Source: Spirochaetia bacterium (GTDB lineage Bacteria; Spirochaetota; Spirochaetia; CAKZLE01). Taken from it: 64,000 nt of DNA. The stretch is from the NCBI GenBank assembly GCA_963677595.1, contig OY782041.1, forward strand, positions 3,104,001 through 3,168,000, written 5' to 3'. The position numbers and the translations under genes are program-made. The notes beneath the pieces were generated by a model that saw only the letters and a program-made list of their open reading frames with translations, was not told the origin of the DNA and did no database searches. Every line of letters starts with the position of its first letter. Within the stretch, counting starts at the first letter, position 1. Of the stretch, positions 37,290 through 64,000 are shown piece by piece.

Positions 37290-37293
37290 TTTA

Positions 37294-37573: not shown

Positions 37574-38926
37574 TCACAGCAATGGAGTCATATACAGGGG
37601 AAGGAAGGTGATACCCTCTTCCTGCTTCACATCTCCTGTATGCAGGACATAGGGAATATGCAGTTGCTGTGCATATTTGGTCCTGAACTTTTTCAGAGAA
37701 CTCAGTTCATAATACTTGCTTGACTTTACCTCGATTGGAGAGATGGTATGCCTGTTGCTGATCCTGCTCTTCGCAATCAGGAAATCTATCTCCATACGAG
37801 AGGAGGCATCATCACGGGATGGGTTAGCATAGAAATACAGCTTATGGCCGCTGGCTGCCAGCATCTGCGCTACGATATTCTCTATGATCATGCCCAGATT
37901 GGTCTCCAGCTTGTTGAAGAGGATTCTTTTATAGATCTCTTCACTCACTATGTCGTTCTCATCAAATGCATGACTGATGAGAAGCCCTGTGTCTGCCATA
38001 TAACATTTGAGCCTAATACGATCCATGTTGAGCCTCAAGCAGATATCAGGGGAACTGGAGTTATAACACATATTCGTGATCATAGCATCGCCAAGCCAGA
38101 ATAATGCATCTTCATAGTCCCGCATGCGAGCTTCTTTTCTCAACGATGACAGTTTGAACTTCCTGTTCTGCTTCTGAAGCTGTGCAGGGATAGCATCAAA
38201 GATCTGTAAGACCTTCATCTCATAGCCTTCAGCATGCTTCACGATGTCAGATCGGTAGAGTGCAAGAATATCCCGCTTCACCCGGTCTAGCCTGGTAAAG
38301 TCACGGGTTATCACATATGTCTCCACTGCCTGGGGCAACCCTCCCACGATAAGATACTGCCTGAAATAGTCCATGACTTTTCGATGAAGGGCTTGCCCCA
38401 GGGGTTTCACGTCTTTGAAGCATTTCCTGATGAAGTCCATCATGGTGTCATGTCCAAGAGCCCAGAGGAATTCCTCAAAGTCCATGGGAAACATGGAAAG
38501 ATGATGTTCTTCCGAAGGAATAACAATATCTTGTACATGTTTCTTTATGCTCATGAGGGAGCCGGTCTCTATATAATCATACCGACCGTCAGCCACCAGG
38601 TATTTTATCGCTGCCCGTGCTCTTGGACAGAGCTGTACCTCATCAAGGATAATCAGCGTATCTCGATCATACAGCTTTACATTGTAGTAATTTGAAAGGT
38701 ACAAGAAGAACGTCTCCAGATCGTCGGCATAGTTCCTGAAGAGATCTGTGATCTCTGTGCTGACCCGGTTGAAATCGATCATAATATAGGCTTTGTATTC
38801 AGCCTTCGCGAACTCTTCTACGATATAGCTCTTCCCTACACGCCGGGCACCCTCGATCAGCAATGCTGTTCGCCCATCTTCCTCCTGTTTCCATGCCACC
38901 ATATCTGCATATATCTTTCTTCTCAT
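37574..38926 (-). CDS. AAA_14 + DUF4143 ATPase (COG1373-type)
   Basis: WK..., EGARRVGKS, ILDEVQ, TGS, PMDFEEFL, GGLP, DTGLL, EN, EIDFL and IEVKS motifs. Confidence 0.92.
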   Translation of the reverse strand: MRRKIYADMVAWKQEEDGRTALLIEGARRVGKSYIVEEFAKAEYKAYIMIDFNRVSTEITDLFRNYADDLETFFLYLSNYYNVKLYDRDTLIILDEVQLCPRARAAIKYLVADGRYDYIETGSLMSIKKHVQDIVIPSEEHHLSMFPMDFEEFLWALGHDTMMDFIRKCFKDVKPLGQALHRKVMDYFRQYLIVGGLPQAVETYVITRDFTRLDRVKRDILALYRSDIVKHAEGYEMKVLQIFDAIPAQLQKQNRKFKLSSLRKEARMRDYEDALFWLGDAMITNMCYNSSSPDICLRLNMDRIRLKCYMADTGLLISHAFDENDIVSEEIYKRILFNKLETNLGMIIENIVAQMLAASGHKLYFYANPSRDDASSRMEIDFLIAKSRISNRHTISPIEVKSSKYYELSSLKKFRTKYAQQLHIPYVLHTGDVKQEEGITFLPLYMTPLL

Positions 38927-38950
38927 TGCGTATGGTCGACTCCTTTAATT

Positions 38951-39071
38951 CACGTTTTCAATGATTTCAAATCCAGTATACCACACGTAATCAAGAAATT
39001 CAAATTCGATAATTTACACATAATCAAAAAATACAAATTGCATTTGATACACATAATCAAGATATTCAGAT
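38951..39071. repeat. Four 22-bp imperfect direct repeats at an exact 33-bp period, containing the promoter of 37574-38926
   Basis: Units start 38951, 38984, 39017, 39050 (cac.taatcaa....t.caaat); minus-strand TTGAAT-17-TATACT at 39003-38975. Confidence 0.85.
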
Positions 39072-39074
39072 GGA

Positions 39075-40289
39075 CTACGAGCACCCCTCGATACCGTGAA
39101 CGAGTCGATCAAGCAGGAAATCTATGAGGTTCCTGTGGATGATCCCATTCCTCGAGCGATTGACCCTGTCAAGAGAGAGTACCAGTTTCGGGTAGTTGTC
39201 ATCGATTTGCTCCAGTACAGAGAACTCCCGCTCGATGGTCGCGGGTTCTGCAAGAAGATAGGCTACCTGGATGTACTGCTTCTCATTCGCCCTGACGGTA
39301 ATGAAATCGACCTCTTTCTCCTGGTATTTCCCGATATAGATCTCATAGCCCTTTCCCCTCAGGTGAAGGTAGACCAGATTCTCCAGGACCTGGCTGATGT
39401 CCTGCTCATTATCGAAGAAGAGGCTGCGTAACCCGAGATCATTGATGAAATACTTCTCATTAGTCTTCAGCAGTTCCTTGCCCTTGATGTCGTATCGTGG
39501 TACCCCGTGAATAAGGTACGCCTGCTTTGCTGCATCGATATACTGGTAGATCGTCTCCTTGGAGAATCTGCGGCCCTCACTCTTCAGGTATTTCGTTATC
39601 GTCCCTGCTGAAAAGGTCTGCCCGATATTATGCATGATACACCTCATGAAACGCTGCAGCAGGTCAACATTCCTGATATGATAGCGTCCGATGATATCCT
39701 TCAGGAGGATTGACTGGTACATATCAAGCAGGTGGTTCCTCCTGATGGCCTCTATCTCGAAGTGCAGGATGCCGGGAAGCCCCCCAGTCCTGAGATACCG
39801 TAAAAGTGCCTGTTCTCTCTCGTCCTTCGGATCCAGGGACAGGATCTCCATAAAGGAGAGTGGAAGTATCTCGATAGCGTAATACCTTCCTGTCAGGTAG
39901 GTCGCCAGCTCCCCAGACAGCAGACGGGAATTGGACCCGGTTATGAAGAGTTCCGCATTACCTTCCGCGTTCAGCGAATTCACGACCTTCTCGAACCCAG
40001 AGACCTCCTGGATCTCATCAAGGAACACGTAGTACCTCTCTGTATTCACCATGCGTTCCCGAATATACCGATCGAGTTCGTGGTATTCATTGATGGGTTC
40101 GTATTCCATCAACTCGAAATTCACGCTGATGATCTGGTCGACCGCGACTCCGGATGCGATCAAGGCTTCCTGAATCTGCTGCAGGAGGGTGGATTTCCCA
40201 ACCCGGCGCATGCCGGTCAGGACCTTGATGATCTGTTTCCCGGTTACTGCACGAATCTCTTTAAGATACCGTTCTCTCTGAATGATCAT
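39075..40289 (-). CDS. AAA_14 + DUF4143 ATPase
   Basis: IKVLTGMRRVGKS, FLDEIQ, TGSNS, GGLP, KY...DLGLR, EN.VY, EVDF and YIQV motifs. Confidence 0.92.
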   Translation of the reverse strand: MIIQRERYLKEIRAVTGKQIIKVLTGMRRVGKSTLLQQIQEALIASGVAVDQIISVNFELMEYEPINEYHELDRYIRERMVNTERYYVFLDEIQEVSGFEKVVNSLNAEGNAELFITGSNSRLLSGELATYLTGRYYAIEILPLSFMEILSLDPKDEREQALLRYLRTGGLPGILHFEIEAIRRNHLLDMYQSILLKDIIGRYHIRNVDLLQRFMRCIMHNIGQTFSAGTITKYLKSEGRRFSKETIYQYIDAAKQAYLIHGVPRYDIKGKELLKTNEKYFINDLGLRSLFFDNEQDISQVLENLVYLHLRGKGYEIYIGKYQEKEVDFITVRANEKQYIQVAYLLAEPATIEREFSVLEQIDDNYPKLVLSLDRVNRSRNGIIHRNLIDFLLDRLVHGIEGCS

Positions 40290-40348
40290 GGCGATGCTCC
40301 TAGAGCCATTTCATTGGCTTGAGAAGGTTGTGGTAACTCCTCTTGATA

Positions 40349-40426
40349 ATTATATGGCATACATGTCCCGTAAACAAGACAAAAATCTAATAATTCAATA
40401 AAAAGTCTAACATACAAGACAAATAT
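40349..40426 (-). promoter_or_regulatory. Promoter with two repeated sites at a 40-bp period
   Basis: TTGTTT-17-TATAAT (40377-40349); gtc......acaagacaaa.at at 40365 and 40405. Confidence 0.65.
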
Positions 40427-40478
40427 GCATGTTTGGTATGGTGAAGATACCCTATCGAACTACTGATTACAATGTTAT

Positions 40479-40513
40479 CTCCAGAAAGTATGATTACATC
40501 ATACTTTCTGGAG
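40479..40513. repeat. Perfect 16-bp inverted repeat
   Basis: ctccagaaagtatgat-tac-atcatactttctggag. Confidence 0.85.
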
Positions 40514-40637
40514 GTATTATTGATGGAGACAGCAGAGCTGACCAGACTGAGTTAGAAGGAAATGCGTACTATCAATCGAAGATTATGCACATGATCACAG
40601 GATCATAGTATCATTATCTGAAGCAGCTACCCAAACC

Positions 40638-40895
40638 GTGGGACCGTATCGTGTGCCAAAGTCCACTGGTGCTATGCTGCATGATACGTTGGGTGATACT
40701 TTGGGTGATACTTTGGAGTCCCGGATACTGGCACTGATCAGGAAGGATCCAGCTGTCCTCCAGCAGGAGCTCTCAGAAGAGCTTGCTGTCTCCATCCCGA
40801 CTGTCAAGCGTACCATGAAGCGGATGACCGAAAAGCATATCATCGAACGGAAAGGGGGCAGGAGGTACGGCCGCTGGGAGATACCCAGTCCCTAG
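40638..40895 (+). pseudogene. Orphan C-terminal winged-helix fragment of a Schlafen/RecG-like or Fic-like regulator
   Basis: DTLG x3 linker (12-bp repeats 40683-40718) followed by ILALIRKDP....ELSEEL.VS..TVKR....IERKGGRRYGRWEI. Confidence 0.65.
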
Positions 40896-41207
40896 CACAG
40901 CTCTTCCATCTTGAAGGCTCCAGCTTTTCATCTGTTCTCTATGACTGCAGGAACTCTTGAGGAGGTAAGCAGGAGGCTATCGTCCCCATCCCCAGACAGG
41001 ACAGGGAATGTCCCTGATGTGGTTCTCACAGCATCCTTACGTGCACATGAGTTCCTCTAAAAAGACGGCAGATCTAACATCTGATGTTACTTCTGCCGAT
41101 AGTCACCTGGAAGTCAATACTATGGGATCTCTTATCCCGTCAAAACTGATTGGTGATCAGGATCCAATAAAAAATCGACAGCTGGATGCTGTGTTATACT
41201 TTCATAC

Positions 41208-43571
41208 ATGATAGATACCAATACGAGAGTAGAATACATACGAAAGAAACTCGAGGAGTTGGAGCAGGAGAGCATACTCCTGAAAGAGGAACTTGCAGGG
41301 CTCCTGCCCAGCAGCCCTGCAGGCGTGATCACCAAGCGCAGCTCTTCCAAGGAGAAGATCGATCTGTTCCTTGCCCTGTTTCGCTGCCGGGAAGACAGAT
41401 ACCCCTATTATTACGAAAGGAAGAGTGATGGAAGAGCCGGTTACAATCCAGCATGCAAGAACGAGTGGCTTGAAGGAATCTGCGGAAAGATCATGAAGCC
41501 GCGTGTATCCTGCTCATCCTGCAGGAACTTCATACCAGTCCCATTCACAGCTGATACAGCGAGAAGCCACCTGACAGGGCCTGGTGCAATAGGGTCCTAT
41601 TCAATTGACCAGCAGGATCGATGCATCTTCCTGGCTGCTGACTTTGACAAACAGGACTGGCAGGCGGATGCGTTCGCCTATCGTTCTACAGCGAAGGGGA
41701 TGGGTATCGAGGCTGCAGTCGAGATATCCAAATCAGGTGATGGAGCCCATGTCTGGATATTCTTCTCTGAACTCGTGCCTGCACGTTCTGCGAGACGGCT
41801 GGGAGAGCTGATCCTTACACGGACTCTTGATTCCTCTGATACCCTGCAGTTTGACAGCTATGATCGATTCTTCCCTAACCAGGATTACTGCCCGAAAGCC
41901 GGCTTCGGCAACCTCATCTTCCTCCCGCTGCAGAAAGATTTTCGAGACAAGGGATGTACCGTATTCATCGATGAAGCCGGTATCGCCTATCCCGATCAAT
42001 GGGCGTACCTCTCATCACTCCACAGGATGTCATTGACTGAACTTGAGGAACACCTTGCAGAGGAGATCCTATCGGCAGATGATGAGATTGGCTCAAGTGA
42101 ATCTATCATACAGCAGTATCGACTGCCGATCCCCGCCGGGAATTCAGGGACGGTCGATCTGGTCTTAAGGGGACAGATCGCCATCCCAAGGAACCAGCTG
42201 CCGAAGAAACTCCTCAAAGCGCTCATGAGAAGAGCCACGATCGCAAACCCGAAGTTCTTCCAGATGCAGAAGATGCGGTTCTCGACCTGGAATATACCGA
42301 AGTATATCTTCTGCGGGACCAGTGATGAGTACTACCTCTATCTGCCTCGCGGCCTGATGGGACCAGTCCTGGAGTTCCTGTCCGATCAGGGGATGCAGGT
42401 GAGTATCACCGATGAGAGGAATACTGGACCGAAGATAGCCACCCGTTTCACCGGGGATCTGTATGATCACCAGGCACGGATCGTAGAGCAGTTGTTGAAG
42501 TCAGAGAAAGGGGTCCTGGTGGCTCCTACCGGTACAGGAAAGACAATCATGGCAGCAGCACTCATCGCGTTGAGGTCCTGCAGTACCTTGATCCTGGTCC
42601 ATAGGGGTACCCTGATCCAGCAATGGATAGAGACGCTCACAACGTATTTGGAAGGAATAGAGAAGAAGCATATCGGGGTGCTTGGTGCTGGACGAAAGAA
42701 ATTGAAAGGGAAGCTGGATATCGCGATGCTGCAGTCCCTGGCCAGGAAAGAGAACCTGGAAGAATTGACCAAGGCTTACGAATTCGTCATTGTCGATGAG
42801 TGTCACCGGGTCCCTACCGTGACCTTCGAGCCGATTCTACAGTCGATCGCTGCGCGGTTCGTCCTCGGCCTGACAGCTACGCCAAAACGAAAAGATCAGT
42901 TCCAATCCATCATCTTCATGCAGTGCGGTGAGATCACCGCACGATTAGAAGATATCAACAGGATGCACCAGGTCAGGACCGTATACTTCCTGGAGTCATC
43001 ATTACCGGCACTTCCCGAGCCCCATACCGTTACTGAGATCTGGGACTATATCTGCAGATCCGAAGACAGGAATCGGATGATCGTCGATACGATCATGCTG
43101 GTCTTGAAGGAGAAGAATCCTCTCGTCATTTCTGACAGGGTTGAACACCTTCAACGATTGCAGGAGTTGATGGATGAGAACAATAGGTTCATGCACACTC
43201 TCCTGCTTACCGGCAGTGTGGGGAAGAAGGAGCGGAAGCGTATACTCGAACAGTTCACCTGCAGCTTGAGAGACAAGACGCCCTGCTGCCTCTTTGCCAC
43301 CGGGTCGCTCATCGGAGAGGGGTTCGATCTCCCTGAACTCGATACGATGGTCCTGACTATGCCGATCTCGTTCTCAGAACGCCTGACCCAGTATGTAGGG
43401 AGGCTCCATCGGCAATCCGGGGAGGAGAAGAAAGTGATCACAGTCTACGATATAGTTGACACCGTATCGGGCATGACTGTCTCCATGTTCAAGAAGAGAC
43501 TCTCCGCCTATAAGAGACTCGGGTATCGGATGGAAACAGCTGTTGACAGCAGATTACTGAAGTTCCTGTGA
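41208..43571 (+). CDS. Archaeo-eukaryotic primase-like (TOTE-type) domain + SF2 DEAD/DEAH helicase
   Basis: FL.LF..RED.Y, FLAADFD, EISKSGDGAHVWIFF, DRFFPNQD and GNLI.LPLQ; APTGTGKT, DECH, GLTATP, EGFD and QYVGR. Confidence 0.88.
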   Translation: MIDTNTRVEYIRKKLEELEQESILLKEELAGLLPSSPAGVITKRSSSKEKIDLFLALFRCREDRYPYYYERKSDGRAGYNPACKNEWLEGICGKIMKPRVSCSSCRNFIPVPFTADTARSHLTGPGAIGSYSIDQQDRCIFLAADFDKQDWQADAFAYRSTAKGMGIEAAVEISKSGDGAHVWIFFSELVPARSARRLGELILTRTLDSSDTLQFDSYDRFFPNQDYCPKAGFGNLIFLPLQKDFRDKGCTVFIDEAGIAYPDQWAYLSSLHRMSLTELEEHLAEEILSADDEIGSSESIIQQYRLPIPAGNSGTVDLVLRGQIAIPRNQLPKKLLKALMRRATIANPKFFQMQKMRFSTWNIPKYIFCGTSDEYYLYLPRGLMGPVLEFLSDQGMQVSITDERNTGPKIATRFTGDLYDHQARIVEQLLKSEKGVLVAPTGTGKTIMAAALIALRSCSTLILVHRGTLIQQWIETLTTYLEGIEKKHIGVLGAGRKKLKGKLDIAMLQSLARKENLEELTKAYEFVIVDECHRVPTVTFEPILQSIAARFVLGLTATPKRKDQFQSIIFMQCGEITARLEDINRMHQVRTVYFLESSLPALPEPHTVTEIWDYICRSEDRNRMIVDTIMLVLKEKNPLVISDRVEHLQRLQELMDENNRFMHTLLLTGSVGKKERKRILEQFTCSLRDKTPCCLFATGSLIGEGFDLPELDTMVLTMPISFSERLTQYVGRLHRQSGEEKKVITVYDIVDTVSGMTVSMFKKRLSAYKRLGYRMETAVDSRLLKFL

Positions 43572-43668: not shown

Positions 43669-45075
43669 TCACCCATCGGCGACCCTGTAGAGATCCTCAA
43701 GGCTTATAAGCACCACCCCATCCTGCTGTGCCAGTTCCTGGACAGCCTCCGTGAACCCTGATTTGCTGAAGAGATAATACCAGCGATTGACCGGTTTCCT
43801 GATGATCGCAGCGGCATCGAGGAACGCCTGGTACTCATCGGTGGCAAACACCCTGGTATGGAACTTGCATTCACAGAAGATCGCAGACTCCCGGCTTAAG
43901 TCAAAGGCAAGGATATCGATAGCATCTTGTTTCCTGGTCCTGGGGTTGCCTCCCCACCATCGTCCCATGGAGTGGGGAACGAACGGCAGCTTCCCCAGCC
44001 TTGCCTGTCGGATCAGGTATTCGGTACAGACTTTCTCGAACACGTGTCCCATATATTCCGGAAGGTGCCCGACTATCTCACGTGCGGCGTCCTGCTCACC
44101 CAATAGGTCAAAGTAGCTCTTATTGGCGAATATGAAGTGGAACCAGAATAGGAAGAAATTATCTGCGATCTGGTATATGGTCTTCCTGCTGGAGTCCTTC
44201 TCTCCTGAAGGCGTCACTTTATCTATGAGTTTCATCTCCTTCAGGACCCGAATGTATTTGGCACATTTCGTCTGCGGCTCGTGGACCTTCATGGCTATAT
44301 CATTGAGCCTGCTTGAGCCTGTGGCTATAGCCTCGAAGATACTGTTATAGACTGAAGGTTCTCTCAATTCCATCTTCAGCAGGTTCTGCGTCTCATACTG
44401 CAGGAAGGAACCTATGCGAAGGATGGATCCCGCTATGTTCTGCTCGATGGATACCTTGTCACTGAAAGCTGCAAGGTAGCAGGGGATCCCGCCAAGGATC
44501 CCGTAACTGAGCAGCTTATCCTCATAGGTGTAATCGGGAAAGAAGGACGAACTCTCCAGGTAGTCAAACCCTGTCAGCTCCAGATTGCTCGTGGAACGTC
44601 CATACAGGGGGCTCCTTGCTCCCATGACTTCAGAAGCCATGAAGCTAACGCTCGAGCCGCATAGTATCAGGAAGATATTCTTGTGTTTCCAGTCATGGTC
44701 TATGGTGTGCTGCAGGATGGATTTGATCGACTCATTGGACTCCGCGATGAACGGGAACTCATCTATGATCAACGTGATCCGCTGCTCCGATGGCTGGCTG
44801 CTGATGAACTTCAGGGCAGTTTGCCAATCTGAGAAGGTGCTGAAGGATGAGCCGGAGAAATACTGCTGAACAGCCTTGGAGAAGTCGGAGAGATTCAGGC
44901 TGTCGTTCTTTGCCTGGGCAGCATAGAAGATCACCGGATGATTCCTGGAGAACTCCAACAGGAGCGACGTCTTCCCGACCCGTCTCCTCCCATAAAGAAC
45001 AAGGTATTCGAACGTATCCGAGGCATACAGGGACTCAAGCAGCGCCAATTCCTTCTCTCTTCCAATGAACATCAC
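43669..45075 (-). CDS. Archaeal-type ATPase (ATPase_2) + DUF234 nuclease domain
   Basis: FIGREKEL, YGRRRVGKT, IIDEFP, CGSS, PLYGR, GGIP.YL, D.F..FWF.F, GRWW and IDI...ECK motifs. Confidence 0.92.
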   Translation of the reverse strand: MMFIGREKELALLESLYASDTFEYLVLYGRRRVGKTSLLLEFSRNHPVIFYAAQAKNDSLNLSDFSKAVQQYFSGSSFSTFSDWQTALKFISSQPSEQRITLIIDEFPFIAESNESIKSILQHTIDHDWKHKNIFLILCGSSVSFMASEVMGARSPLYGRSTSNLELTGFDYLESSSFFPDYTYEDKLLSYGILGGIPCYLAAFSDKVSIEQNIAGSILRIGSFLQYETQNLLKMELREPSVYNSIFEAIATGSSRLNDIAMKVHEPQTKCAKYIRVLKEMKLIDKVTPSGEKDSSRKTIYQIADNFFLFWFHFIFANKSYFDLLGEQDAAREIVGHLPEYMGHVFEKVCTEYLIRQARLGKLPFVPHSMGRWWGGNPRTRKQDAIDILAFDLSRESAIFCECKFHTRVFATDEYQAFLDAAAIIRKPVNRWYYLFSKSGFTEAVQELAQQDGVVLISLEDLYRVADG

Positions 45076-45093: not shown

Positions 45094-45135
45094 TATACTC
45101 ATAAGTATTATACTCGTGAATCATATATATGTCAA
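45094..45135 (-). promoter_or_regulatory. Consensus promoter overlapped by two 15-bp-period repeats
   Basis: TTGACA-17-TATAAT (45135-45107); tatactcataagtat (45094) and tatactcgtgaatcat (45109). Confidence 0.75.
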
Positions 45136-45182
45136 ATTTGGATCATCTCTTTTCCATACATGAACATAAGCTGCAGAGCGCT

Positions 45183-48083: not shown

Positions 48084-48150
48084 GCCATACCTCTTCTCTT
48101 TGACGATCTCTCAGGGGGGCGAGTACATGCTTTTCATCAGTATTGCATAT

Positions 48151-49326
48151 CTATCGGATACGCTGCACATGTGTTGCTTCAAGCTTATCTATCATGCCCT
48201 GCAGGCTGATCACCTCGATGCGCTCGTGCACGGGATACTGTTCTTTACCCGGGTAGAGTATATAGAGCCTGTCCAGGCTGAGGTCTTCGAGGGCACTGTA
48301 CATGGACCTGGTGGGCTTCGGCGACTCAGAGAGTTTACACTCGATCCCGATTCTCTTCCCCTCATAGATGAAGAAGAGATCCAGTTCTGCACCGCTGTGG
48401 GTAGACCAGAAATAGGGTATGATCCCCGGGTTTGTGCGCAGGATCTGTTCGATCACGAACCCCTCCCAGGAGGCGCCGGCAGCCGGGTGGCTGAGCAGCT
48501 CGTCAAGATTCCTTAGCTGCAGCAGGTGGTTGAGTATCCCGGTATCAGTGAAGTAGATCTTCGGGGATCTCACCTGACGTTTCTTGAGATTCTCATACCA
48601 GGGCGGCAGGATACGGAGCATATAGGTACTGCTGAGCATATCGATATAGGACCTGATGGTGTTATGACTCAACCCCATGGCTTTCCCCAACTGGGAACTG
48701 TTGAGTACCTGTCCGTGCACGTGGGCAAGCATCGTCCAGAACCTGCGCATCGTTTCAGCTGGGACCTTGATGCCAAGCTGCGGGATATCGCGCTCTAGGA
48801 AGGTCCTGATGAACCCTCCTCTCCAGGCGAAGCTGGCAGCAGGATCAGGGGCAAGGTACGATAACGGGAATCCTCCTCGGACCCAGAGGTCCCGCCAGGG
48901 GAGCTCGGAAGTCCCGGCAGGTATCTCCGTGATGTTAAACCCCTGAAGGTCGATGAACTCGACCCTGCCTGCCAGCGACTGGGAAGCATGGCTGATGAGG
49001 TCCGGTGAAGCGCTGCCCAGGATGAGGAAACGCCCGTTTGCTGCCCAACGGTCTGCAAGGACCCTGAGTACCCCAAAGAGTTCAGGCATCATCTGGATCT
49101 CATCTATGATGATCAGTCCGGGAACCTGGGAAAGAAAAAGTTCGGGGTTCTGCAGTTTTGCCCTGTCTGAAGGGAGTTCCAGGTCCAGCAAAGAGGATTG
49201 CAGGTTTTCCTGGACCTCCATGGCTAATGTGGTCTTGCCGCATTGCCGGGGGCCAAGGATCGCAGTGATCTTCGAACGGCTGAGCGCTGTCCGTACGGAT
49301 CTCAGGTATGCCTCTCGTTTGATCAT
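48151..49326 (-). CDS. AAA_14 + DUF4143 ATPase
   Basis: GPRQCGKTT, IDEIQ, LGSAS, LAGR, RGGFP, K.Y..DTG, WEGF, ELDL and IECK motifs. Confidence 0.93.
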   Translation of the reverse strand: MIKREAYLRSVRTALSRSKITAILGPRQCGKTTLAMEVQENLQSSLLDLELPSDRAKLQNPELFLSQVPGLIIIDEIQMMPELFGVLRVLADRWAANGRFLILGSASPDLISHASQSLAGRVEFIDLQGFNITEIPAGTSELPWRDLWVRGGFPLSYLAPDPAASFAWRGGFIRTFLERDIPQLGIKVPAETMRRFWTMLAHVHGQVLNSSQLGKAMGLSHNTIRSYIDMLSSTYMLRILPPWYENLKKRQVRSPKIYFTDTGILNHLLQLRNLDELLSHPAAGASWEGFVIEQILRTNPGIIPYFWSTHSGAELDLFFIYEGKRIGIECKLSESPKPTRSMYSALEDLSLDRLYILYPGKEQYPVHERIEVISLQGMIDKLEATHVQRIR

Positions 49327-49334
49327 ACAACTAT

Positions 49335-49381
49335 ATTAACATTGAAAATTGTAAATATCAATTACAATTTTCAATGTTAAT
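49335..49381. promoter_or_regulatory. Perfect 20-bp inverted repeat covering a leaderless promoter
   Basis: attaacattgaaaattgtaa-atatcaa-ttacaattttcaatgttaat; minus-strand TTGATA-17-TAATAT-6-ATG with the -35 in the loop. Confidence 0.85.
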
Positions 49382-49465: not shown

Positions 49466-49993
49466 CTATGACCGTCTCGCAGTCCAGTGTACCCTCAGTA
49501 CAGCAGGCTGCACCGATGCTGACTGTGATACGGAAGCCATCAAGGTTTCGGTCTCTATCGCAGCCCGCAGGGATTCTGCCATGACATAGAGCTCGCTCTC
49601 GCTGTAGCGGTAGGCCAGGACCGTGAACTCCTCACCGCCGTAGCGGTAGCTCTGCAGCCTCAGGGCCTCAGAGGACCCCAGCAGCATCGCCCCGAACCGG
49701 TCAGGCGCCTGTCGGCAGCAGGGTGCCCGTAGGTGTCGTTGAACTGCTTGAAATGGTCGATATCTTTTCATGAGGATACATGAGGGTTTCACTGCCCCTG
49801 GCTGTCTCAAGCCTTCCAGCGTCTCGAAGAGCTTCGGGCGGTTGTACAGCCCTGTCAGGACATCGGTCTCCTTCTCGATGATGAGCAGTCGGTGTGCCTC
49901 ATAGCTCTCGAGACGTATCCCCCCCCATGATATTCCCCAGGTAGCCGCCCAAGATGAGGAAACAGAGGCTGTTGATCGTGTAGTCAAGAGCAT
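49466..49993 (-). pseudogene. GGDEF diguanylate cyclase remnant
   Basis: DVLTGLYNR and YRYGGEEF present; the DIDHFK..ND..G segment is in another frame. Confidence 0.8.
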
Positions 49994-51933: not shown

Positions 51934-52013
51934 ATGTAACAAACTCTTTAAAATAAAAAGTTTTTGGACATTGATGTCATAAACTTTCCTATCTTACATT
52001 TTTATGGTATTGT
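51934..52013 (+). repeat. Two degenerate ~40-bp tandem units upstream of an ATPase gene
   Basis: atgt.a.aaact...ttt.tgg at 51934 and 51974; unit 1 has the internal dyad aaact...agttt. Confidence 0.5.
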
Positions 52014-52029
52014 TGTTGTGGAGGCGTGT

Positions 52030-53352
52030 ATGCGGAAACCGAGCACATTGATCATGCGTGAACAGTATCTCAGCAGGCTTATTGCATTCTCAGATACAGA
52101 TTCCATAAAAGTCATTACTGGTATCAGGCGATGCGGAAAATCAAGCATGTTGAAACTCATGGTCCGGTACCTGATTGAAGAACGGGGGATCGATCTTGAA
52201 CAGATCGTCGAGATGAATTTTGAATCTCTCGAGTTCTCGCAGATGGATGTCATGGCATTATATGAGTTCATACGGTCGAAGATAATCCCCGGCAAGCGTA
52301 TGTACCTGTTCTTTGACGAGATCCAACGAATTCCCCGCTGGCAGGATGCGGTGAACTCGTTCAGGGTCGACTTCGACTGTGACCAGTATATCACAGGTTC
52401 CAATGCCTATCTGCTCTCCTCCGAGTTCTCGACCTACCTTTCCGGCAGGTATGTGGAGATACAGATGCTGCCCTTATCTTTCAAGGAATTTCTCACGTTC
52501 CAAGGGTATCGTGTGACGATCTCTAACGCTCCCGACGGGACGGAGTCACGTCGGATCGTAGATGATGAGGGGAGACCGTTCTCGATAGCCGATATCTTGC
52601 GGGTGTATATCCGGTATGGAGGGCTTCCTGTTCTGGGGGATATAGCATTGGAGCAGGAGCATGCTCTGATACTGCTCGACGGGGTATTCTCGACAGTCGT
52701 CCTCCGTGATATCCTCCTCCGTGAGAGGAGGAGAGGCCAGCGTCAAATATCCGATACTTTCCTGCTGAAGAAGATCAGCCTCTTCCTGGCCGACAATATC
52801 GGGAACCCTACCTCCCTAACCTCGATAGGGAAGATGCTCGTCAGTCAGAGGGATCTGGATGAGGGGCACAGGAAGAGCAATCCAGCGGTACGCACCGTTA
52901 TCGCCTATGTGACTGCACTCCTGGAATCCTATGTATTCTATGAGATAAAGCGATTTGACATCAAGGGTCGTGAATACCTGAAGACCCTTGGCAAGTACTA
53001 TATCGTGGATCCAGGCTTGAGGAACTATCTTCTTGGCTTCAATGGACTGGATACCGGTCGTATGCTTGAGAACATCGTCTATCTTGAACTCCTTCGCCGC
53101 GGGTACGATCCCGCCGTAGGGAAGATCGGTGAAATGGAAATAGACTTTGTTGCCATTCGGGGAGATGAGATCCTCTATATCCAGGTAGCCTCGTCATTAG
53201 CTGATGAGGCTGCCCTGGAACGTGAAGTGAGACCATTCAGACAGGTTGTGAACGGGTATGCGAAGATACTCATTACCGGAGAACGCTATCTTGCGGCATC
53301 GGTGGATGGGTATCCTGTGATCTATCTTGGGGACTGGCTGCTGGAGCCGTGA
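52030..53352 (+). CDS. AAA_14 + DUF4143 ATPase
   Basis: IKVITGIRRCGKS, FFDEIQ, TGSNA, GGLP, KYYIVDPGLR, EN.VY, EIDF and YIQV motifs; RBS ggagg. Confidence 0.92.
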   Translation: MRKPSTLIMREQYLSRLIAFSDTDSIKVITGIRRCGKSSMLKLMVRYLIEERGIDLEQIVEMNFESLEFSQMDVMALYEFIRSKIIPGKRMYLFFDEIQRIPRWQDAVNSFRVDFDCDQYITGSNAYLLSSEFSTYLSGRYVEIQMLPLSFKEFLTFQGYRVTISNAPDGTESRRIVDDEGRPFSIADILRVYIRYGGLPVLGDIALEQEHALILLDGVFSTVVLRDILLRERRRGQRQISDTFLLKKISLFLADNIGNPTSLTSIGKMLVSQRDLDEGHRKSNPAVRTVIAYVTALLESYVFYEIKRFDIKGREYLKTLGKYYIVDPGLRNYLLGFNGLDTGRMLENIVYLELLRRGYDPAVGKIGEMEIDFVAIRGDEILYIQVASSLADEAALEREVRPFRQVVNGYAKILITGERYLAASVDGYPVIYLGDWLLEP

Positions 53353-53390: not shown

Positions 53391-54509
53391 CTACTGCAGG
53401 AATTCTACGCAGTTCTCCGGTGTGACGGAGCTCTCTGCTGCGAGGTCGTAGATTTTCCGGAACGTGGTGTGACACGTCCTGTACCTGGATGGGGCCCACC
53501 TGAACTCGAAGGCGTGGAACTTCCCGTCATGCTCCTCGAGGTAGGGGACCCTCTCCTGTCTCTTGGTCCACCAGAACCTTGCCTTCGGAGATACCCCCTT
53601 GTGCATGTTGCGCTTCATCCGCTCACTGGCACAGAAGTTCTCCCATAACGCCTCACGGTCAGCACGGGAACACATCGGGGAGAAATCAGAGGCCAGGGCA
53701 TTCCTCAAGCCGGTATCATAGAAGTAGACCTTCCTGCCCCGCTGGTACTCCCAGTCAGGGGAGGTGCAGAGGATATCAAGATAAAAGATGATGAATGCCT
53801 CCTCCAGCATCTGTAAATATATCCTGGTCGTACTGGTGCTGAGCCCGGCGGCGTCTGCCAGTCCTTTCATGATGAGCACCTGCCCGTTCTGCAGTGCCAG
53901 GGTGTGCAGCAGCCTGATGAACCCGTCGGGATATCTGATCGTCTTAAGGCTGCACAGCTCTCGCTTTATGTTCTCCGAGATGGCCTGCAGCAGGTATTGT
54001 TCTTTCCCTGGGGATGTGACCACTTCCGGGTAATACCCGTAGAGCACCCGCTCTTCGAGCATCCGGTGTTCGGTGGCGGTATCGGTATGGGCAGCCATCT
54101 CACCAAAGGAGAGGGGATGCAGGTAGAGACTTGTGAGCTTCTTGTGATACGGCTCCTTGAGCCTGTTGGCAAGCTTGAGGGACCACGACCCGGTCGCCAG
54201 CACCTGCAGCCCCGGCATGACGGACGTGATCCGATGAAGGATCAGCCCGATATGCTCGATCCTCTGCGCTTCCTCGATGATCAGTGATGCATAGCCTGAG
54301 AGCTGTGTCATCAGCCTGCTGCCTGCGATCCTGCGGAGGAGTTTCCCCGTCCCCGGGTGGGTGCCATCGAGCCAGAGGACATCATCTGCATGCTTGAACA
54401 GGTCCCGAAGCAGGGACCTCTTCCCTGCATGCTGCGGCCCGCAGACCAGTAAGGCTTTTCCCGGGCGGCAGCCCGCCAGGATGCCAGCTTCAATGTTTCG
54501 TGTAATCAC
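53391..54509 (-). CDS. Motif-degenerate AAA_14 + DUF4143 paralogue
   Basis: Walker A GPQHAGKR, Walker B IIEEAQ, nuclease region ERVPYL...FEFRW; K.YFYDTGLRNAL and LWENF retained; GTG start after RBS ggagg. Confidence 0.8.
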   Translation of the reverse strand: MITRNIEAGILAGCRPGKALLVCGPQHAGKRSLLRDLFKHADDVLWLDGTHPGTGKLLRRIAGSRLMTQLSGYASLIIEEAQRIEHIGLILHRITSVMPGLQVLATGSWSLKLANRLKEPYHKKLTSLYLHPLSFGEMAAHTDTATEHRMLEERVLYGYYPEVVTSPGKEQYLLQAISENIKRELCSLKTIRYPDGFIRLLHTLALQNGQVLIMKGLADAAGLSTSTTRIYLQMLEEAFIIFYLDILCTSPDWEYQRGRKVYFYDTGLRNALASDFSPMCSRADREALWENFCASERMKRNMHKGVSPKARFWWTKRQERVPYLEEHDGKFHAFEFRWAPSRYRTCHTTFRKIYDLAAESSVTPENCVEFLQ

Positions 54510-54561
54510 TTCCAGCCTCCGGCCACAGTATAGGCCAGGATAGGATAAAGTCAACCATTTC

Positions 54562-55857
54562 CTATGGAAAAGAGTTAGCTTTTCCTATGGAAAAGAGTTC
54601 GCTGGGGTTGCGGTAGAAGATCCGCTCGGCGATGAACTCCGCCTGGCTGATATCCAGTTTGCCCCTTGATACCATCTCCGACAGGGCTGAAGCGATGTTC
54701 TCCTTCGCTATCCGCAGGTGGCCGGCAACCAGATCGATGCGTGATACGTCGCCTCCGAAAGCCATGACCTTGTTGACCGGGACAGTGTCGATCAGCTCCT
54801 TCAGGAACCTCCTGCTTGCCTCAGGCGCGATGATATGAGCCCAGCACATGTCGATGTAGACGTTGGGGAAGGTCTTTGCCAGGACTGCTGTATATCCCTG
54901 GTAGGGGTACCCTATATGGAAGAGGTCGAACGAGAGGTCGGGGTACTCGCAGAAGAGATTTGTCAGCAGCCTCGGGTCCGCGTTCCTGACCTCATTGCTG
55001 TTCCCTGCCTGCAGCCCGGTATGGATCTGGAAGACGAGCCCCCGCCTGTTTGCCAGACCCATGATGTGATGGAGCATGTGGTCCTGTGCCGCTTCCCCGA
55101 ACATGATGTATTTCGGGTTCCAGTCAGGATATCGCTTGGCAGCGAAGACGGGGTTGAAGGCTGCCTCCGCTTCATGCAGGGAAGCCCGTTCGAAACAGAG
55201 GCTCCGCCTGTAGGCGAGTCCCAGCTTGAACGCCTTCGCACCCTCCCTGACTGCCCGGTCAAGGAGGATGCTGCAGGCCTCCTTCCAGTCCCCGAAGCTG
55301 CAGATACGGATGCCCGATGCGCTCTCGATCCTGCGGATCTCCTCCCAGCTCTGCGGGGAGATGAAGGTGTCAACCCGGCACACCCCGGTGAAGCATGCAG
55401 GGTCACAGTCGATGAGGTAGTCCCCGGTGTCGAGGAGGCAGGTCTCGATATGATACCGGTCGAGGAGCTCCCTCGTATACCCCTCACGGTCGAGCTGTCG
55501 CTTGAACCGGGCATCGAGCTCCTCGATCGTTGAGGAATCGATCCGGTCGATGGAGTAGAGGGCCTGCACGGTCACATCGAGATGTCTCCCGTAGCCGGTG
55601 AGCCTGCAGAGCTCCCAGTAAGGTTCGACGGCCTTCCAGCGGTCAAGGATCGGGAGCGAGCTGTCCTGGAGCAGCAGGTAATCCTGGTCTGACAGCCCTG
55701 CGGATGCCAGGTCATACCTGAAGTACTGGCTGGTATACTCAGCAAGGAGGTCAGTCTCCCTGCTGCGGAGCTGCTCGAACCCCGGCAGGTGCTCATGCGT
55801 GTCTATGACCCGCACGCCTTCCAGGTATTCACGCAGCTGATCGTGGAACTTGTTCAT
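54562..55857 (-). CDS. Amidohydrolase-superfamily protein (possible uronate isomerase-like)
   Basis: VIDTHEHL, FQIHTG, FDLFH.GYP and FGGD motifs; next to the uxu cluster. Confidence 0.75.
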   Translation of the reverse strand: MNKFHDQLREYLEGVRVIDTHEHLPGFEQLRSRETDLLAEYTSQYFRYDLASAGLSDQDYLLLQDSSLPILDRWKAVEPYWELCRLTGYGRHLDVTVQALYSIDRIDSSTIEELDARFKRQLDREGYTRELLDRYHIETCLLDTGDYLIDCDPACFTGVCRVDTFISPQSWEEIRRIESASGIRICSFGDWKEACSILLDRAVREGAKAFKLGLAYRRSLCFERASLHEAEAAFNPVFAAKRYPDWNPKYIMFGEAAQDHMLHHIMGLANRRGLVFQIHTGLQAGNSNEVRNADPRLLTNLFCEYPDLSFDLFHIGYPYQGYTAVLAKTFPNVYIDMCWAHIIAPEASRRFLKELIDTVPVNKVMAFGGDVSRIDLVAGHLRIAKENIASALSEMVSRGKLDISQAEFIAERIFYRNPSELFSIGKANSFP

Positions 55858-58512: not shown

Positions 58513-58516
58513 GGCT

Positions 58517-59797: not shown

Positions 59798-59949
59798 CGA
59801 ATGCAGCCGCTTCCCCCGGCAAACAGGCTGGCTGACCGGGGGAGTTCTTCTTCCCGTAAGCCGGCGCTACGTAGAATGAAAAGAACCAAGGACACTGAGA
59901 TCGTATTCCCGTATCAGGCTTCGAGTGTGTCCGGATGGAGAGTATAAAC

Positions 59950-61023: not shown

Positions 61024-61033
61024 GGAGCAGAGA

Positions 61034-62641
61034 ATGAGATTGCACAGAGAGAGCCTTGCTGATACGGGTTTCTGGGAAGAGAGAGGTTATACCCTGCCGG
61101 GATTCGATGTGGAGACGGTGCGGAAGAGGACCCTGGAGGCACCTTCCTGGCTGCATGTCGGGGCGGGAAACATCTTCAGGATCTTCCCTGCTGCCCTGCA
61201 GCAGAAGCTGCTCGGCAATAGGAGTGTCGATACCGGTATCATCGTCACCGAGATGTACGATGAGCAGATCATAGACAGTGCCTTCACTGCATTCGACAAC
61301 CTCACGATCGCCGTGACCCTCGAGGCATCAGGCGAGCTGAAGAAGGAGATCCTCGGGAGCATCGTGGAAGCATTGAAGCCACGGGAGTCCTATAACGAGC
61401 TGAAGCGGGTCTTCTGTGCCCCCTCACTGCAGATGGTGAGCTTCACCATCACGGAGAAGGGGTATGCCGTGAAGGATTCCGAAGGGAAGGTCTTCCCCTG
61501 GATAGCCGCGGACCTCGGGATCGGGGAGGGGGAGATCCCTTCCACCACCATCGGTCTGGTCACCTGGCTCTGCTACCGGCGCTACCAGGAGGGACGGCAT
61601 CCCCTTGCCCTGGTCAGCATGGACAACTGCAGCCATAACGGGACGGTGCTCGAGGAAGCGGTACGCTTCTTTGCTGAGAGCTGGGTCTCCTCAGGTCTCT
61701 GTGATGCAGGCTTCCTCTCCTACCTGGGAGACCCTGCCGAAGTGTCGTTCCCCTGGAGCATGATCGACAAGATCACGCCGCGTCCGGCTGAGAGCATCAT
61801 CGCGGAGCTCGAGGGGGACGGGTTGGAAGACATGGGTCTCAAGCAGACTGACAAGCATACCTTCGTGGCCCCCTTCGTGAATGCGGAGAGTTCCCAGTAC
61901 CTCGCGATCGAGGAGTTGTTCCCCAACGGGAGGCCCCCGCTCGAAGAGGCCGGGGTGATCTTCTCAGACCGGGAGACGATCGACCGGATCGAGAAGATGA
62001 AGGTCTGCACCTGCCTGAACCCCCTGCATACCGTCCTCGCGGTGTTCGGCTGTCTCCTCGGGTACACGAGCATCTCGGATGAGATGGGAGACCCCATGCT
62101 GAAAGCCCTGGTCGAGCGGGTAGGCTATGATGAGGGACTCCCCGTCGTGGTCGACCCTGGCATCATGTCTGCTGAGGATTTCATCAATGACGCGATCAAC
62201 CTGAGGTTCCCAAACCCCTTCGTTCCTGATACCCCGCAGCGGATCGCCTCAGACACCTCGCTGAAGATCCCCGTCCGTTTCGGGGAGACCCTCAAGGCTT
62301 ACATCGCACGAGGCGAGAGAGACCTCGGGTTCCTGAGGTTCATCCCGCTGTTCTTTGCCGGATGGCTCCGGTACCTGATGGCCGTCGATGACCGTGGGGC
62401 TGCATTCGAGCAGAGCCCGGACCCGAATCTGCCGGAACTGCACGCACTGCTCAGTAGCATCTTCCTAGGTGAAGACGGTCCCTTCCATGACAGGCTCCAG
62501 CCCCTGCTCAGCCGTGCGGACATCTTCGGGATCGACCTCTATGAGTTCGGCCTGGGGACGAAGGTGGAAGAGTATTTCGCCCAGATGAACAGCGGCCCCC
62601 ATGCGATCAGGGAGACCCTGCAAAGATACCTGGGCTTGTGA
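61034..62641 (+). CDS. uxuB: Mannitol dehydrogenase-family protein (fructuronate reductase)
   Basis: H.GAGNIFR, SFTITEKGY, SMDNCSHNG, MIDKITPRP and RFPNPF..DTPQRIA.D motifs. Confidence 0.88.
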   Translation: MRLHRESLADTGFWEERGYTLPGFDVETVRKRTLEAPSWLHVGAGNIFRIFPAALQQKLLGNRSVDTGIIVTEMYDEQIIDSAFTAFDNLTIAVTLEASGELKKEILGSIVEALKPRESYNELKRVFCAPSLQMVSFTITEKGYAVKDSEGKVFPWIAADLGIGEGEIPSTTIGLVTWLCYRRYQEGRHPLALVSMDNCSHNGTVLEEAVRFFAESWVSSGLCDAGFLSYLGDPAEVSFPWSMIDKITPRPAESIIAELEGDGLEDMGLKQTDKHTFVAPFVNAESSQYLAIEELFPNGRPPLEEAGVIFSDRETIDRIEKMKVCTCLNPLHTVLAVFGCLLGYTSISDEMGDPMLKALVERVGYDEGLPVVVDPGIMSAEDFINDAINLRFPNPFVPDTPQRIASDTSLKIPVRFGETLKAYIARGERDLGFLRFIPLFFAGWLRYLMAVDDRGAAFEQSPDPNLPELHALLSSIFLGEDGPFHDRLQPLLSRADIFGIDLYEFGLGTKVEEYFAQMNSGPHAIRETLQRYLGL

Positions 62642-63001
62642 TCAGCTCTCCAGCTCGGCGAGCCTCATCGTGACCATGTCATGAAGCAGTCCCTCATCGA
62701 TTTCCCAGTCCACAGGGACGGTGAAGAGGTTCGCCTTGACCGTATAGCTTGAGAGGCGGTCAGCGAAGGCTGCCATCACCTCCTGGCTCCAGGGAGCCAG
62801 GGAGAGGTGTCCCTTCGCAGCTGACATACCGAAGACATACTTCCCCTTGAGGTGGATCTGCGGCACGTTCCAGGCGAGCTTGACCTCAAGAAGAGGGAAC
62901 TCACTGAGGATGCAGTCGATCACTGCCTTGAGCGTTGCCCCCTTGGGCGGCTCGAGTGACCCCAGATACTCATCTACCGTCGTGAACTTTGGTGCAGCCA
63001 T
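62642..63001 (-). CDS. DUF1801/YdhG-family protein
   Basis: TVDEYL...AWNVP...SAAKGHL..AP pattern; RBS ggagg. Confidence 0.85.
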   Translation of the reverse strand: MAAPKFTTVDEYLGSLEPPKGATLKAVIDCILSEFPLLEVKLAWNVPQIHLKGKYVFGMSAAKGHLSLAPWSQEVMAAFADRLSSYTVKANLFTVPVDWEIDEGLLHDMVTMRLAELES

Positions 63002-63115
63002 GGTTAGGACCTCCTGTCGTATGAACAATATACTCATACTCCCGTAGTAGTAGCAAATGATTTCCCCTTCAGTGTTCCCAGGCTGTCCACCAGCCTGTTC
63101 TATTACGCGTTTCGT

Positions 63116-63253
63116 CATGAAACATGTAAACAATTACAAATATTCATAGGAATAACTGTAAGAACTTACAAAATTACATAGGAAAAATTGTAAAACTTTA
63201 CAAAAATCCATAGGAAAGTTGACGTGAGGTTATCGCCGTGTTAGGATATAAGC
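63116..63253 (+). repeat. Tandem array with a 32-bp period and palindromic cores, adjoining a leaderless promoter
   Basis: cataggaa at 63145, 63177, 63209; tgtaaN4ttaca at 63125, 63157, 63189; TTGACG-17-TAGGAT-6-ATG. Confidence 0.85.
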
Positions 63254-64000
63254 ATGAAGAGGACGTTATATACAGCACTGACAGCCTGGAAGGAACGTAA
63301 TGACAGGAAGCCCCTCATACTCCGGGGGACCAGGCAGACAGGGAAGACCTATCTTCTGACAGAGTTCGGGAACCGTGAATTCCGCAAGCTGCATTACCTG
63401 AACTTCCAGAAGGACAGGACGCTGAACCAGTTGTTCGAAGGGAACCTGTCCCCTGGGCATCTTCTCGAGCTGATCGAGTTCGCCTTGAAGGATGATGTGA
63501 ACATCGGAGAGGACCTTCTGTTCTTTGATGAGATCCAGGATTGCCCGCGGGCGCTGACCAGCCTGAAATATTTCTGTGAAGATATGCCGCAGCTGGCTGT
63601 GGTGAGTGCCGGATCCCTCCTTGGCGTGGTTGGGGCAGCATCATCCTTCCCGGTAGGGAAGGTGAACTTCCTCGACCTCTATCCCATGTCCTTCGTTGAG
63701 TTCCTGGAGGCAATGGGCGAAAGTCGATCGGTCAAGGTCCTGGAAGAAGCCAGCCTGGGGACGAAGATCCCGCCCTTCATCCATGATACCATCATGGGGA
63801 TCCTCAAGGAATATATGGTAGTAGGGGGGATGCCGGAGATCGTAGCACTCTACCGCACTGGCCGGGCCTCTAAACGGCAGGTATATGTAGAAGTCCGTGA
63901 ACGGCAGCAGGAGCTGCTGAGCACGTACCTGGGTGATTTCTCGAAATACGCAGGGACTGCTCGAGCCAAGGAGCTCGTGGCAGTCTTTGAATCGATACCC
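63254..64000 (+). CDS. AAA_14 (+DUF4143) ATPase, truncated by window end (absent from the ORF track)
   Basis: Read by hand: MKRTLYTALTAWKERNDRKPLILRGTRQTGKTY...FFDEIQ...PMSF.EFL...GGMP. Confidence 0.9.
   Translation, partial: MKRTLYTALTAWKERNDRKPLILRGTRQTGKTYLLTEFGNREFRKLHYLNFQKDRTLNQLFEGNLSPGHLLELIEFALKDDVNIGEDLLFFDEIQDCPRALTSLKYFCEDMPQLAVVSAGSLLGVVGAASSFPVGKVNFLDLYPMSFVEFLEAMGESRSVKVLEEASLGTKIPPFIHDTIMGILKEYMVVGGMPEIVALYRTGRASKRQVYVEVRERQQELLSTYLGDFSKYAGTARAKELVAVFESIP

Follow-up and report, generated by a model that had tools for sequence, protein, structure and literature searches.

We analyzed a 64,000-nucleotide stretch of a spirochaete genome (hereafter, the window: contig OY782041.1, positions 3,104,001 to 3,168,000, assembly GCA_963677595.1), in which positions 37574-64000 hold seven paralogous genes of the predicted ATPase-winged helix-turn-helix (wHTH)-nuclease type, six of them preceded by a short direct-repeat array or palindrome. 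Each of these repeats is probably a private operator that the encoded protein, an ATPase of the STAND (signal transduction ATPases having numerous domains) type, likely binds and through which it likely represses its own promoter. Given that the site is private to its gene and lies on the promoter, that it follows the protein across phyla and that its period is fixed by protein clade, self-binding by an oligomerizing AAA+-winged-helix protein appears to be the simplest account of these sequence comparisons. The cis-element itself is real and undescribed, and belongs to a known candidate family. Among the three roles that a preliminary description of this DNA had proposed for the repeats, namely autoregulation, self-marking and mobility, autoregulation appears to fit best.

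A genome-wide family of predicted ATPase-nucleases

Six of the seven genes combine the Pfam domains AAA_14 and DUF4143 and belong to the PADLOC family PDC-S01 (best E-values 4e-83 to 4e-150, Pfam scores above the cut-off), and the seventh, at 43669, has the ATPase_2-DUF234 architecture of PDC-S27 (E 1e-60); all open reading frames (ORFs) and Pfam assignments of the preliminary description were confirmed. The source genome is a single contig of 4.33 Mb (G000:C1), with spirochaetal genomes supplying the closest named homologues, and a six-frame profile search identified 57 paralogues around it, the seven window genes included, with a highest identity between any two of 64%. The 27-kb cluster is thus one densely populated part of an expansion that covers the whole genome, and is nothing special in itself.

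Walker A and Walker B are intact in 56 of the 57 paralogues. The nuclease motif E..(D/E)..ExK is kept in 39 (a count taken from the motif table), all 13 clade-I copies carry a conserved variant, E..D..Qx[ACST], that lacks the K, and five copies deviate otherwise. Active-site residues together with a restriction fold place the C-terminal domain in the PD-(D/E)xK superfamily, as a predicted nuclease. Matches to the protein encoded at 37574 occur in only 59 of 72,556 plasmid records. Phage records gave 14 matches, 13 of which are labelled 'Bacteriophage sp.', the ten listed being unannotated gut contigs and uninformative.

Repeats are enriched upstream of the family

For each gene, the 150 bp upstream of the start were scored for direct repeats (period 10-60) and inverted repeats with correction for base composition; as controls, we used 1,676 genes with at least 80 non-coding bases upstream, the thresholds being the control 95th percentiles. 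Repeats were found upstream of 40 of the 57 paralogues, whereas the controls gave 154 of 1,676 and, when matched for AT content, 79 of 846 (p about 1e-25); once a strain-specific duplication (54558-54603, see below) is excluded, 39 paralogues remain. A similar excess was seen in a Bacteroidales genome (G042), where 29 of 42 paralogues and 13 of 103 controls were positive, these controls coming from 17 stretches of 20 kb. The expectation that arrays are more frequent here than upstream of control genes is thus borne out.

Repeats and promoters of the window genes

All repeats named in the preliminary description are present at their coordinates. The clade-W gene at 37574..38926 (minus strand; 450 amino acids, PDC-S01, PADLOC 1e-113, motifs intact) is preceded by four boxes with a 33-bp period and a core consensus of about TCTTGAWWWCGTG (38951..39071, minus strand; score 42.4, reached by 0.4% of controls). 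Box 3 occupies the spacer between the -35 (38998-39003) and the -10 (38975-38980) and box 4 lies downstream of the -10; one 33-bp unit is absent from a contig of a close strain (run X2; a single contig of low depth). The other clade-W gene, on the plus strand at 63254..64000, crosses the window end (the whole ORF is G000:C1 3167254-3168582) and has three full units with a 32-bp period, each combining TGTAA-N4-TTACA with CATAGGAA (63116..63220, plus strand; score 43.2, 0.3% of controls). This array abuts the -35, TTGACG (63219-63224), the -10 is at 63242-63247 and a leaderless start is predicted; the upstream region of a 67% identical orthologue ranks this array first among all 57.

Both clade-I genes have pairs of 40-bp units. 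Upstream of the gene at 39075..40289 (minus strand; 404 amino acids, nuclease variant E..D..QVA), the units at 40365 and 40405, each a loose GTC-N10-GAC palindrome, lie over the predicted -35, with the -10 at 40349-40354 (whole feature 40349..40444, minus strand); 8.8% of controls score as high, a level that is not significant alone, and the upstream region of a 73% identical orthologue ranks the cognate region first of 57. The pair at 51934 and 51974 (51934..52013, plus strand), with an internal inverted repeat, precedes the gene at 52030..53352 (plus strand; about 440 amino acids, PDC-S01 by Pfam, PADLOC and motifs) and is likewise not significant alone (38% of controls). Here a 68% orthologue ranks the cognate region first of 57 (z 14.6), the best period of the same homologue being 40 bp, and in a low-depth single contig of run X2 a deletion from 51987 to 52994 begins inside the array.

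The clade-P2 gene at 48151..49326 (minus strand; 391 amino acids, PDC-S01 by Pfam, PADLOC and motifs) has a perfect palindrome with 20-bp arms and a 7-bp loop (49335-49381; with the -10, 49333..49381, minus strand; score 32.0, 0.1% of controls), centred on the -35 hexamer (49356-49361), with the -10 at 49333-49338 and a predicted leaderless start. Among clade-P2-type loci, this one included, seven of 18 exceed the inverted-repeat threshold, and TTGAC lies in the loop at several. The weakest of the window repeats by our grading belongs to the clade-A gene at 43669..45072 (minus strand; PDC-S27 by Pfam, PADLOC and motifs): two 15-bp units at 45094 and 45109 (45094..45135, minus strand) lie over the -10 (45107-45112), with the -35, TTGACA, at 45130-45135; as 20% of controls score as high, the pair is not significant alone and is backed at the level of the clade only, by four other clade-A loci with a best period of 15 bp.

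The seventh gene, at 53391..54509 (minus strand, clade R), is catalytically dead, having lost both Walker motifs (A and B) as well as the D and K of the nuclease, and has no close orthologue in the five nearest genomes (best 34%); a near-consensus promoter precedes it at 54527-54554. It had been described as having no array. A 2 x 23-bp tandem duplication directly upstream of it, at the 3' end of the adjoining amidohydrolase gene (54558..54603), had been overlooked; however, the contigs of close strains that cover it in runs X1 and X2 are 23 letters shorter and lack it, so that it represents a strain-specific duplication or an assembly feature and no conserved site. The possibility that the dead paralogue keeps an operator was accordingly dropped, and the original statement holds in substance. 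The duplicated 23-mer and the array of the 63254 gene both have CATAGGAA just upstream of the -35, by chance or possibly through cross-talk.

A further palindrome, near-perfect and with 25-bp arms (40470-40522), precedes a broken ORF with a wHTH-like end (about 40523-40895) and has no ATPase gene behind it. In run X1, contig joints connect positions 40524 and 40598 with a 43-bp piece similar to a clade-I gene, and no further match to the palindrome was found in the genome or in the compared loci. The palindrome may be an orphan operator left behind by a paralogue since lost.

Repeat period follows protein clade

Clades were taken from a tree of the proteins only (a quick IQ-TREE search). The best period was 23 bp at all seven clade-K loci, 31-34 bp at 12 of 13 clade-W loci and 39-41 bp at 10 of 13 clade-I loci, that is, the rule held overall at 29 of 33 loci, compared to no more than 18 in any of 100,000 permutations; clades P, P2 and S mostly have single palindromes or palindromic units spaced 32 bp apart. 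Because the periods had first been read in this same genome, the rule was tested in other genomes, with clades assigned by best protein hit and with the count omitting loci with less than 150 bp upstream or no recognisable Walker A or start, as well as duplicates. In representatives of two other phyla, G041 (Anaerovoracaceae) and G042, the expected period was found at 12 of 12 clade-K and 15 of 16 clade-W loci, and in two other genomes from the spirochaete side at one of two clade-K loci (the other has 46), five of seven clade-W loci and seven of 10 clade-I loci.

Box sequence follows its protein

When the upstream regions of homologues from other genomes were compared with all 57 upstream regions of this genome, the cognate region ranked first for 17 of 18 homologues with at least 65% identity, four of nine at 56-65% and seven of 23 at 50-56%. 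The box of the 37574 gene changes stepwise across its spirochaete, Bacillota, Bacteroidales and Methanobrevibacter copies, and over 22 units its core columns are conserved at 0.71 compared to 0.50 for the linkers, the core figure being lowered by three mis-phased units of one locus (L020). With a matrix built from 17 units at six loci of other genomes (three independent types, the clade-W genes of L026 and L027 included), three of the four boxes of the 37574 array rank among the nine best sites in 4.3 Mb, and the whole genome yields a single pair spaced 32-34 bp, which is the cognate array. Cross-similarity among the 40 arrays is high only for the closest clade-K paralogues. The arrays are thus distinct in sequence, as had been noted, with boxes that are private to each paralogue and travel with the protein across phyla.

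Other strong boxes of the 37574 type are isolated and lie mostly in coding DNA, and box sites are not depleted across the whole genome (28 versus 18 +/- 13 with shuffled matrices); on the strength of this one box, a regulon and restriction-type site avoidance were both rejected, and the suggestion that the arrays serve for self-marking of the restriction type finds no support. It is also very unlikely that the repeats are binding sites of a host regulator, or neutral slippage products of AT-rich promoters. The duplication before the dead gene is indeed a neutral one, and three of the window arrays score within the control range; nevertheless, the enrichment survives AT matching, the periods are fixed by clade, and the boxes follow their protein across phyla and into an archaeon, with no second site cluster or regulon in evidence.

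Arrays lie on promoters

A sigma70-type promoter could be called at 23 of the 40 arrays, of which 16 overlap it, six abut the -35 and one lies downstream; the reported location of the boxes on promoters therefore holds for 22 of the 23. This geometry bears on two other explanations. The array might act as a DNA sink or sensor that keeps the nuclease on the chromosome in an inactive state (or as a site of promoter activation), loss or breakage of host DNA freeing the nuclease. In favour of such a role, arrays often reach far upstream from the -35 and comprise five or more units, those in the abutting class only touch it, and unit number differs between strains; a titrating region rich in origin recognition boxes (ORBs) is described for haloarchaeal Cdc6 in the text available of PMC3936714. 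Single palindromes centred on the -35, however, have the geometry of a repressor site and little sink capacity, and we regard a sink or sensor as quite unlikely.

The alternative that the arrays act as RNA, either as repeats resembling type III antitoxins or as guide arrays, we find the least credible of all. Tandem units do stand ahead of a toxic-looking gene, and the 63116 array folds better than its shuffles (z -2.4, -3.3), which it does because its boxes are palindromic; but the arrays lie upstream of, or across, the predicted promoter of their own gene, there is no Rfam hit, and the other three direct-repeat arrays that were folded do not beat their shuffles (z 1.7, 1.5, -0.6, 0.2). Assignment to type III toxin-antitoxin systems or guide RNA arrays was rejected, given that the promoter was not found upstream of the array.

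Fold of the protein

The AlphaFold (AF2) model of the 37574 protein has a pLDDT (predicted local distance difference test) of 93.7. Over residues 1-321, its best structural matches are archaeal STAND-type ATPases, 2qen (Z 16.7; root mean square deviation 4.8 over 268 aligned residues) and 2fna (Z 15.8), followed by NB-ARC and Avs5 proteins (Z 12-14) and by Orc1/Cdc6 on origin DNA (2qby, Z 10.8). Residues 226-325 resemble wHTH regulators at Z about 5, and restriction-type nucleases (Can2/Card1, McrC and others) are matched by the C-terminus, at Z 5-7 only. The P-loop, helical domain and winged helix of the model assign the protein to the STAND / ORC-CDC6 clade of AAA+ ATPases. A sequence search of the PDB gave no match for the 37574 protein and weak matches to 2fna and 2qen for the 43669 protein, and a Foldseek search with the C-terminal half of the 37574 model gave none at E <= 0.001.

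The resemblance to Orc1/Cdc6 raises the question of whether replication starts at the arrays, as origins of the Orc1/Cdc6-ORB or iteron type that the neighbouring ATPase would fire, all the more since each haloarchaeal origin is read by the adjacent cdc6 according to the available part of PMC3936714. Such a function is highly improbable for 57 chromosomal copies in a bacterium, encoding proteins with a C-terminal nuclease and with boxes on the promoter, and archaeal STAND ATPases outscore Orc1/Cdc6 as structural matches.

Traces of mobility

Two paralogues, neither of them in the window, are followed by a second, directly oriented copy of their array that begins within about 10 bp of the stop codon (75 bp, 91%; 52 bp, 98%). 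The second of them (G000:C1:1753050-1754780) is a full form between 26-bp repeats, and a gene-less form, consisting of flank, array and flank (G000:C1:1646600-1646994), lies 108 kb away between 22-bp repeats. Flanking direct repeats are found at two of the 57 paralogues of this genome compared to three of 420 controls (p 0.07-0.11, not significant) and at none of the seven window genes; in G042, they flank seven of 41 genes versus two of 103 controls (p 0.002), and two further sets gave 1/17 and 0/8. Over all other genomes 12 of 91 genes are flanked, about four of the 12 resembling a dispersed element or coding repeats. At L015, an 84% homologue of the 37574 gene, a 156-bp repeat stops about 8 bp before box 1. 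The five nearest genomes, with about 70% DNA identity, are too diverged for a comparison with empty alleles.

These observations are relevant to a scenario in which the array serves as an end or handle for a mobile cassette without a recombinase: the protein would assemble on it and nick or cut nearby, and array and gene, after copying or excision, would insert again with long direct repeats. The arrays duplicated after the stop, the gene-less form, the excess of flanking repeats in G042, the 156-bp repeat beside box 1 of L015, the X2 deletion that begins inside an array and the close homologues in different phyla are all in line with it. Nevertheless, we consider the scenario unlikely, given the lack of a significant excess of flanking repeats in this genome and of any flanks at the window genes, the low counts in the two further sets, the resemblance of about a third of the flanked cases in other genomes to a dispersed element or coding repeats, and the absence of recent copies (top within-genome identity 64% here and 67% in G042). 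Moreover, no second end is present as a rule (the own downstream region has a mean rank of 33 of 57), long target duplications occur for restriction systems that lack a dedicated end (PMC2853133, in the part available), and the controls for flanking repeats were general genes rather than other accessory genes. A Tn7- or Mu-like DNA transposon was rejected, the own box being found downstream at only two of 40 arrays, in direct orientation, and no two paralogues exceeding 64% identity. The earlier suggestion of mobility thus finds some support in the flanking repeats at other loci and none at the seven window genes. Taken together, the traces fit movement of array and gene as a unit that leaves long duplications, as with restriction genes, which does not imply that the protein drives the movement.

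Several other repeats were noted near paralogues. At L015:2350-2500, a REP-like element of about 150 bp lies between the array and the start codon, and the same element flanks L116; at L036, L041 and L102 of G042, a dispersed element of 37-49 bp occurs on both sides of several paralogues, forming a cassette-like cluster; and G000:C1:933940-934194 duplicates the upstream region plus the first 32 codons of a paralogue that lies 20 kb away, at 954373.

Strength of the operator interpretation

Several observations count against self-repression through a private operator. Among the six window arrays, only three are significant alone (the 33-bp and 32-bp arrays and the palindrome), unlike both 40-bp pairs and the 15-bp pair, and a 74% homologue of the clade-A gene (L177) has no 15-bp repeat in the roughly 130 bp available. 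Genome-wide, 17 of the 57 copies lack a significant repeat, and no promoter could be called at 17 of the 40 arrays. At six of the 23 arrays with a promoter, the array is wholly upstream of the -35, a position also compatible with activation, and one of these is the strain-specific duplication. Leaderless-type promoter placement, at 21 of the 57 genes versus 86 of 1,676 controls, speaks for the interpretation, although control starts were called crudely (first ATG), so that control promoters may be understated. In the clade test within the genome, the expected periods had been read from the genome of the first count. The 40-bp rule holds at only four of 16 clade-I loci in G041 and G042; the proposed link between period and subfamily thus stands in this genome and, for 23 and 33 bp, in two other phyla, the 33-bp rule being general whereas the 40-bp rule is mainly spirochaetal. 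The upstream similarity of orthologues may in part reflect plain descent. Covariation between the wHTH and the box, estimated in sliding windows, is weak, and its pairs are non-independent: in clade W (41 loci), box similarity covaries best with residues 241-270, in the winged helix (partial rho 0.20), but in clade K (22 loci) a window of the nuclease region scores highest (0.30), with the wHTH second (0.20). Finally, the winged helix at the equivalent place in Apaf-1/NB-ARC proteins serves mostly for oligomerization and not for DNA binding.

Proposed mechanism

Under the operator interpretation, each gene would be a single-gene cassette whose promoter carries a repeat of its own, the wHTH of the encoded protein would read the box, and the period (23, 33 or 40 bp, or one palindrome) would reflect the oligomer footprint of each clade. 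Self-repression would cap the expression of a potentially lethal nuclease, also just after horizontal arrival, as C (controller) proteins do for restriction systems. With private boxes, dozens of copies could live side by side and not repress one another, a situation that would favour diversification of the boxes. The nuclease would be freed or activated by an ATP-dependent switch, the trigger being most likely infection; a candidate anti-phage role derives from PADLOC candidate status only. In a broader version, which we consider doubtful, the PDC-S01 and PDC-S27 genes would make up a vast family of selfish single-gene elements: the STAND ATPase-wHTH-nuclease would polymerize on its private clade-phased array, and the same complex would silence the gene, sheathe the nuclease and, when triggered, cut, with either the death of the infected cell or the copying of array and gene to a new site with long direct repeats as its purpose.

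Relationship to known systems

The available text of PMC12988326 describes PDC-S01 (COG1373) and PDC-S27 (COG1672) as fusions of an ATPase with a PD-(D/E)xK domain; it ranks PDC-S01 fourth by frequency among the defence entries of prokaryotes, with most PDCs awaiting validation. The families also appear in the candidate catalogues of PMC13356809, bioRxiv 2024.01.29.577857 and PMC3424549 and, in passing, in bioRxiv 2026.10.19.760177, as far as the accessible parts of these sources go. The window proteins are members of these families, and in the accessible parts the published descriptions contain no cis-element, regulation or mechanism. In the literature searched, from which subscription journals were mostly absent and in which the supplements of PDC preprints could bear on novelty, we found no paper on these upstream arrays and no description of a substrate or mechanism for PDC-S01. 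The designation of an 'undescribed system' accordingly has to be narrowed: the proteins are catalogued, and it is the cis-element for which no published account was found.

A close parallel in control logic is that of C proteins and C-boxes (PMC2632904, in part), which share with the present arrays sites upstream of the own gene and a grouping of motif classes that agrees with the protein tree and, as predicted here, leaderless transcripts and control of a toxic nuclease. Unlike in those systems, reader, switch and nuclease would here be one polypeptide of 400-470 amino acids with no methyltransferase partner, the periods are 23-40 bp and there are up to 57 copies per genome; no separate small HTH controller ORF of the C-protein type was found at the window loci, where the arrays lead straight into the ATPase gene. 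The archaeal Orc1/Cdc6-ORB systems (PMC3936714, in part) similarly combine an AAA+ plus wHTH fold with repeats beside the own gene that are read by each paralogue, and differ from the present genes, which have a C-terminal nuclease, a bacterial host, boxes on the promoter and no sign of an origin. The control logic thus resembles that of C-proteins and C-boxes and of cdc6-adjacent origins, by analogy, the present genes being members of neither. Insertions of restriction-modification systems with long target duplication (PMC2853133, in part) have long, variable direct repeats and no mobility gene, features found here at a minority of loci, where, unlike in those insertions, the duplicated stretch is in at least three cases the own operator of the cassette, within about 10 bp after the stop.

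The archaeal STAND ATPases SSO1545 (2fna) and PAB2304 (2qen) provide the closest folds for residues 1-321, the match ending before the nuclease domain; they are about 350 amino acids long, and we know of no DNA site for either. Plasmid iterons with an autoregulated Rep likewise consist of phased direct repeats, located next to a gene for a winged-helix protein that oligomerizes, and differ from the present arrays, which are chromosomal, precede an ATPase-nuclease fusion and belong to no replicon.

Other features of the window

At lower coordinates than the cluster lies a defence neighbourhood (25702-35920) with Ppl (25702-28497), Schlafen-HATPase (28475-29740) and an AbiL-like pair (33892-35920), within which a DDE transposase is encoded at 31564-33309. 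Small genes of toxin-antitoxin type (DUF1413, DUF5615, BrnA-like) follow at 36053-37532, the DUF5615 gene being skipped in contigs of runs X1 and X2. Between the paralogues are a gene for an AEP-TOTE primase fused to a superfamily 2 helicase (41208-43571), a gene for a secreted-type protein with PKD and beta-helix domains (45183-48083) and, behind the 49335 palindrome, a broken GGDEF gene (49466-49993). A contig of run X1 skips 45146-48180, which makes the PKD/beta-helix gene variable cargo. A run X2 contig skips 37096-50265 (13.2 kb, four paralogues) with a 30-letter palindrome between the two sides, weak evidence given a short side of 29 letters. GC content is low, 0.25-0.38, over most of 2000-25000. 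Identical genes at the two ends of the genome contig (G000:C1:7971-11808 and 4321466-4325303) are probably an untrimmed assembly overlap.

Implications

What is new here is the dictionary of 57 copies within one genome, the cross-phylum test of each period and the duplication, in some cases, of the operator itself. A probable cognate DNA site for each protein provides the first obvious ligand for work on binding, ATPase and nuclease activities and for cryo-EM, and leads to the prediction that cloning without the native upstream region, or at high copy, would alter behaviour in phage assays. Given that all geometry classes occur in one genome, the family forms a natural panel for the study of orthogonality and of change in the DNA specificity of AAA+-wHTH proteins. 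Should the reading as selfish elements be true, one genome would hold about 57 orthogonal protein-DNA key pairs as a library, together with a new kind of mobile element that works without a recombinase.

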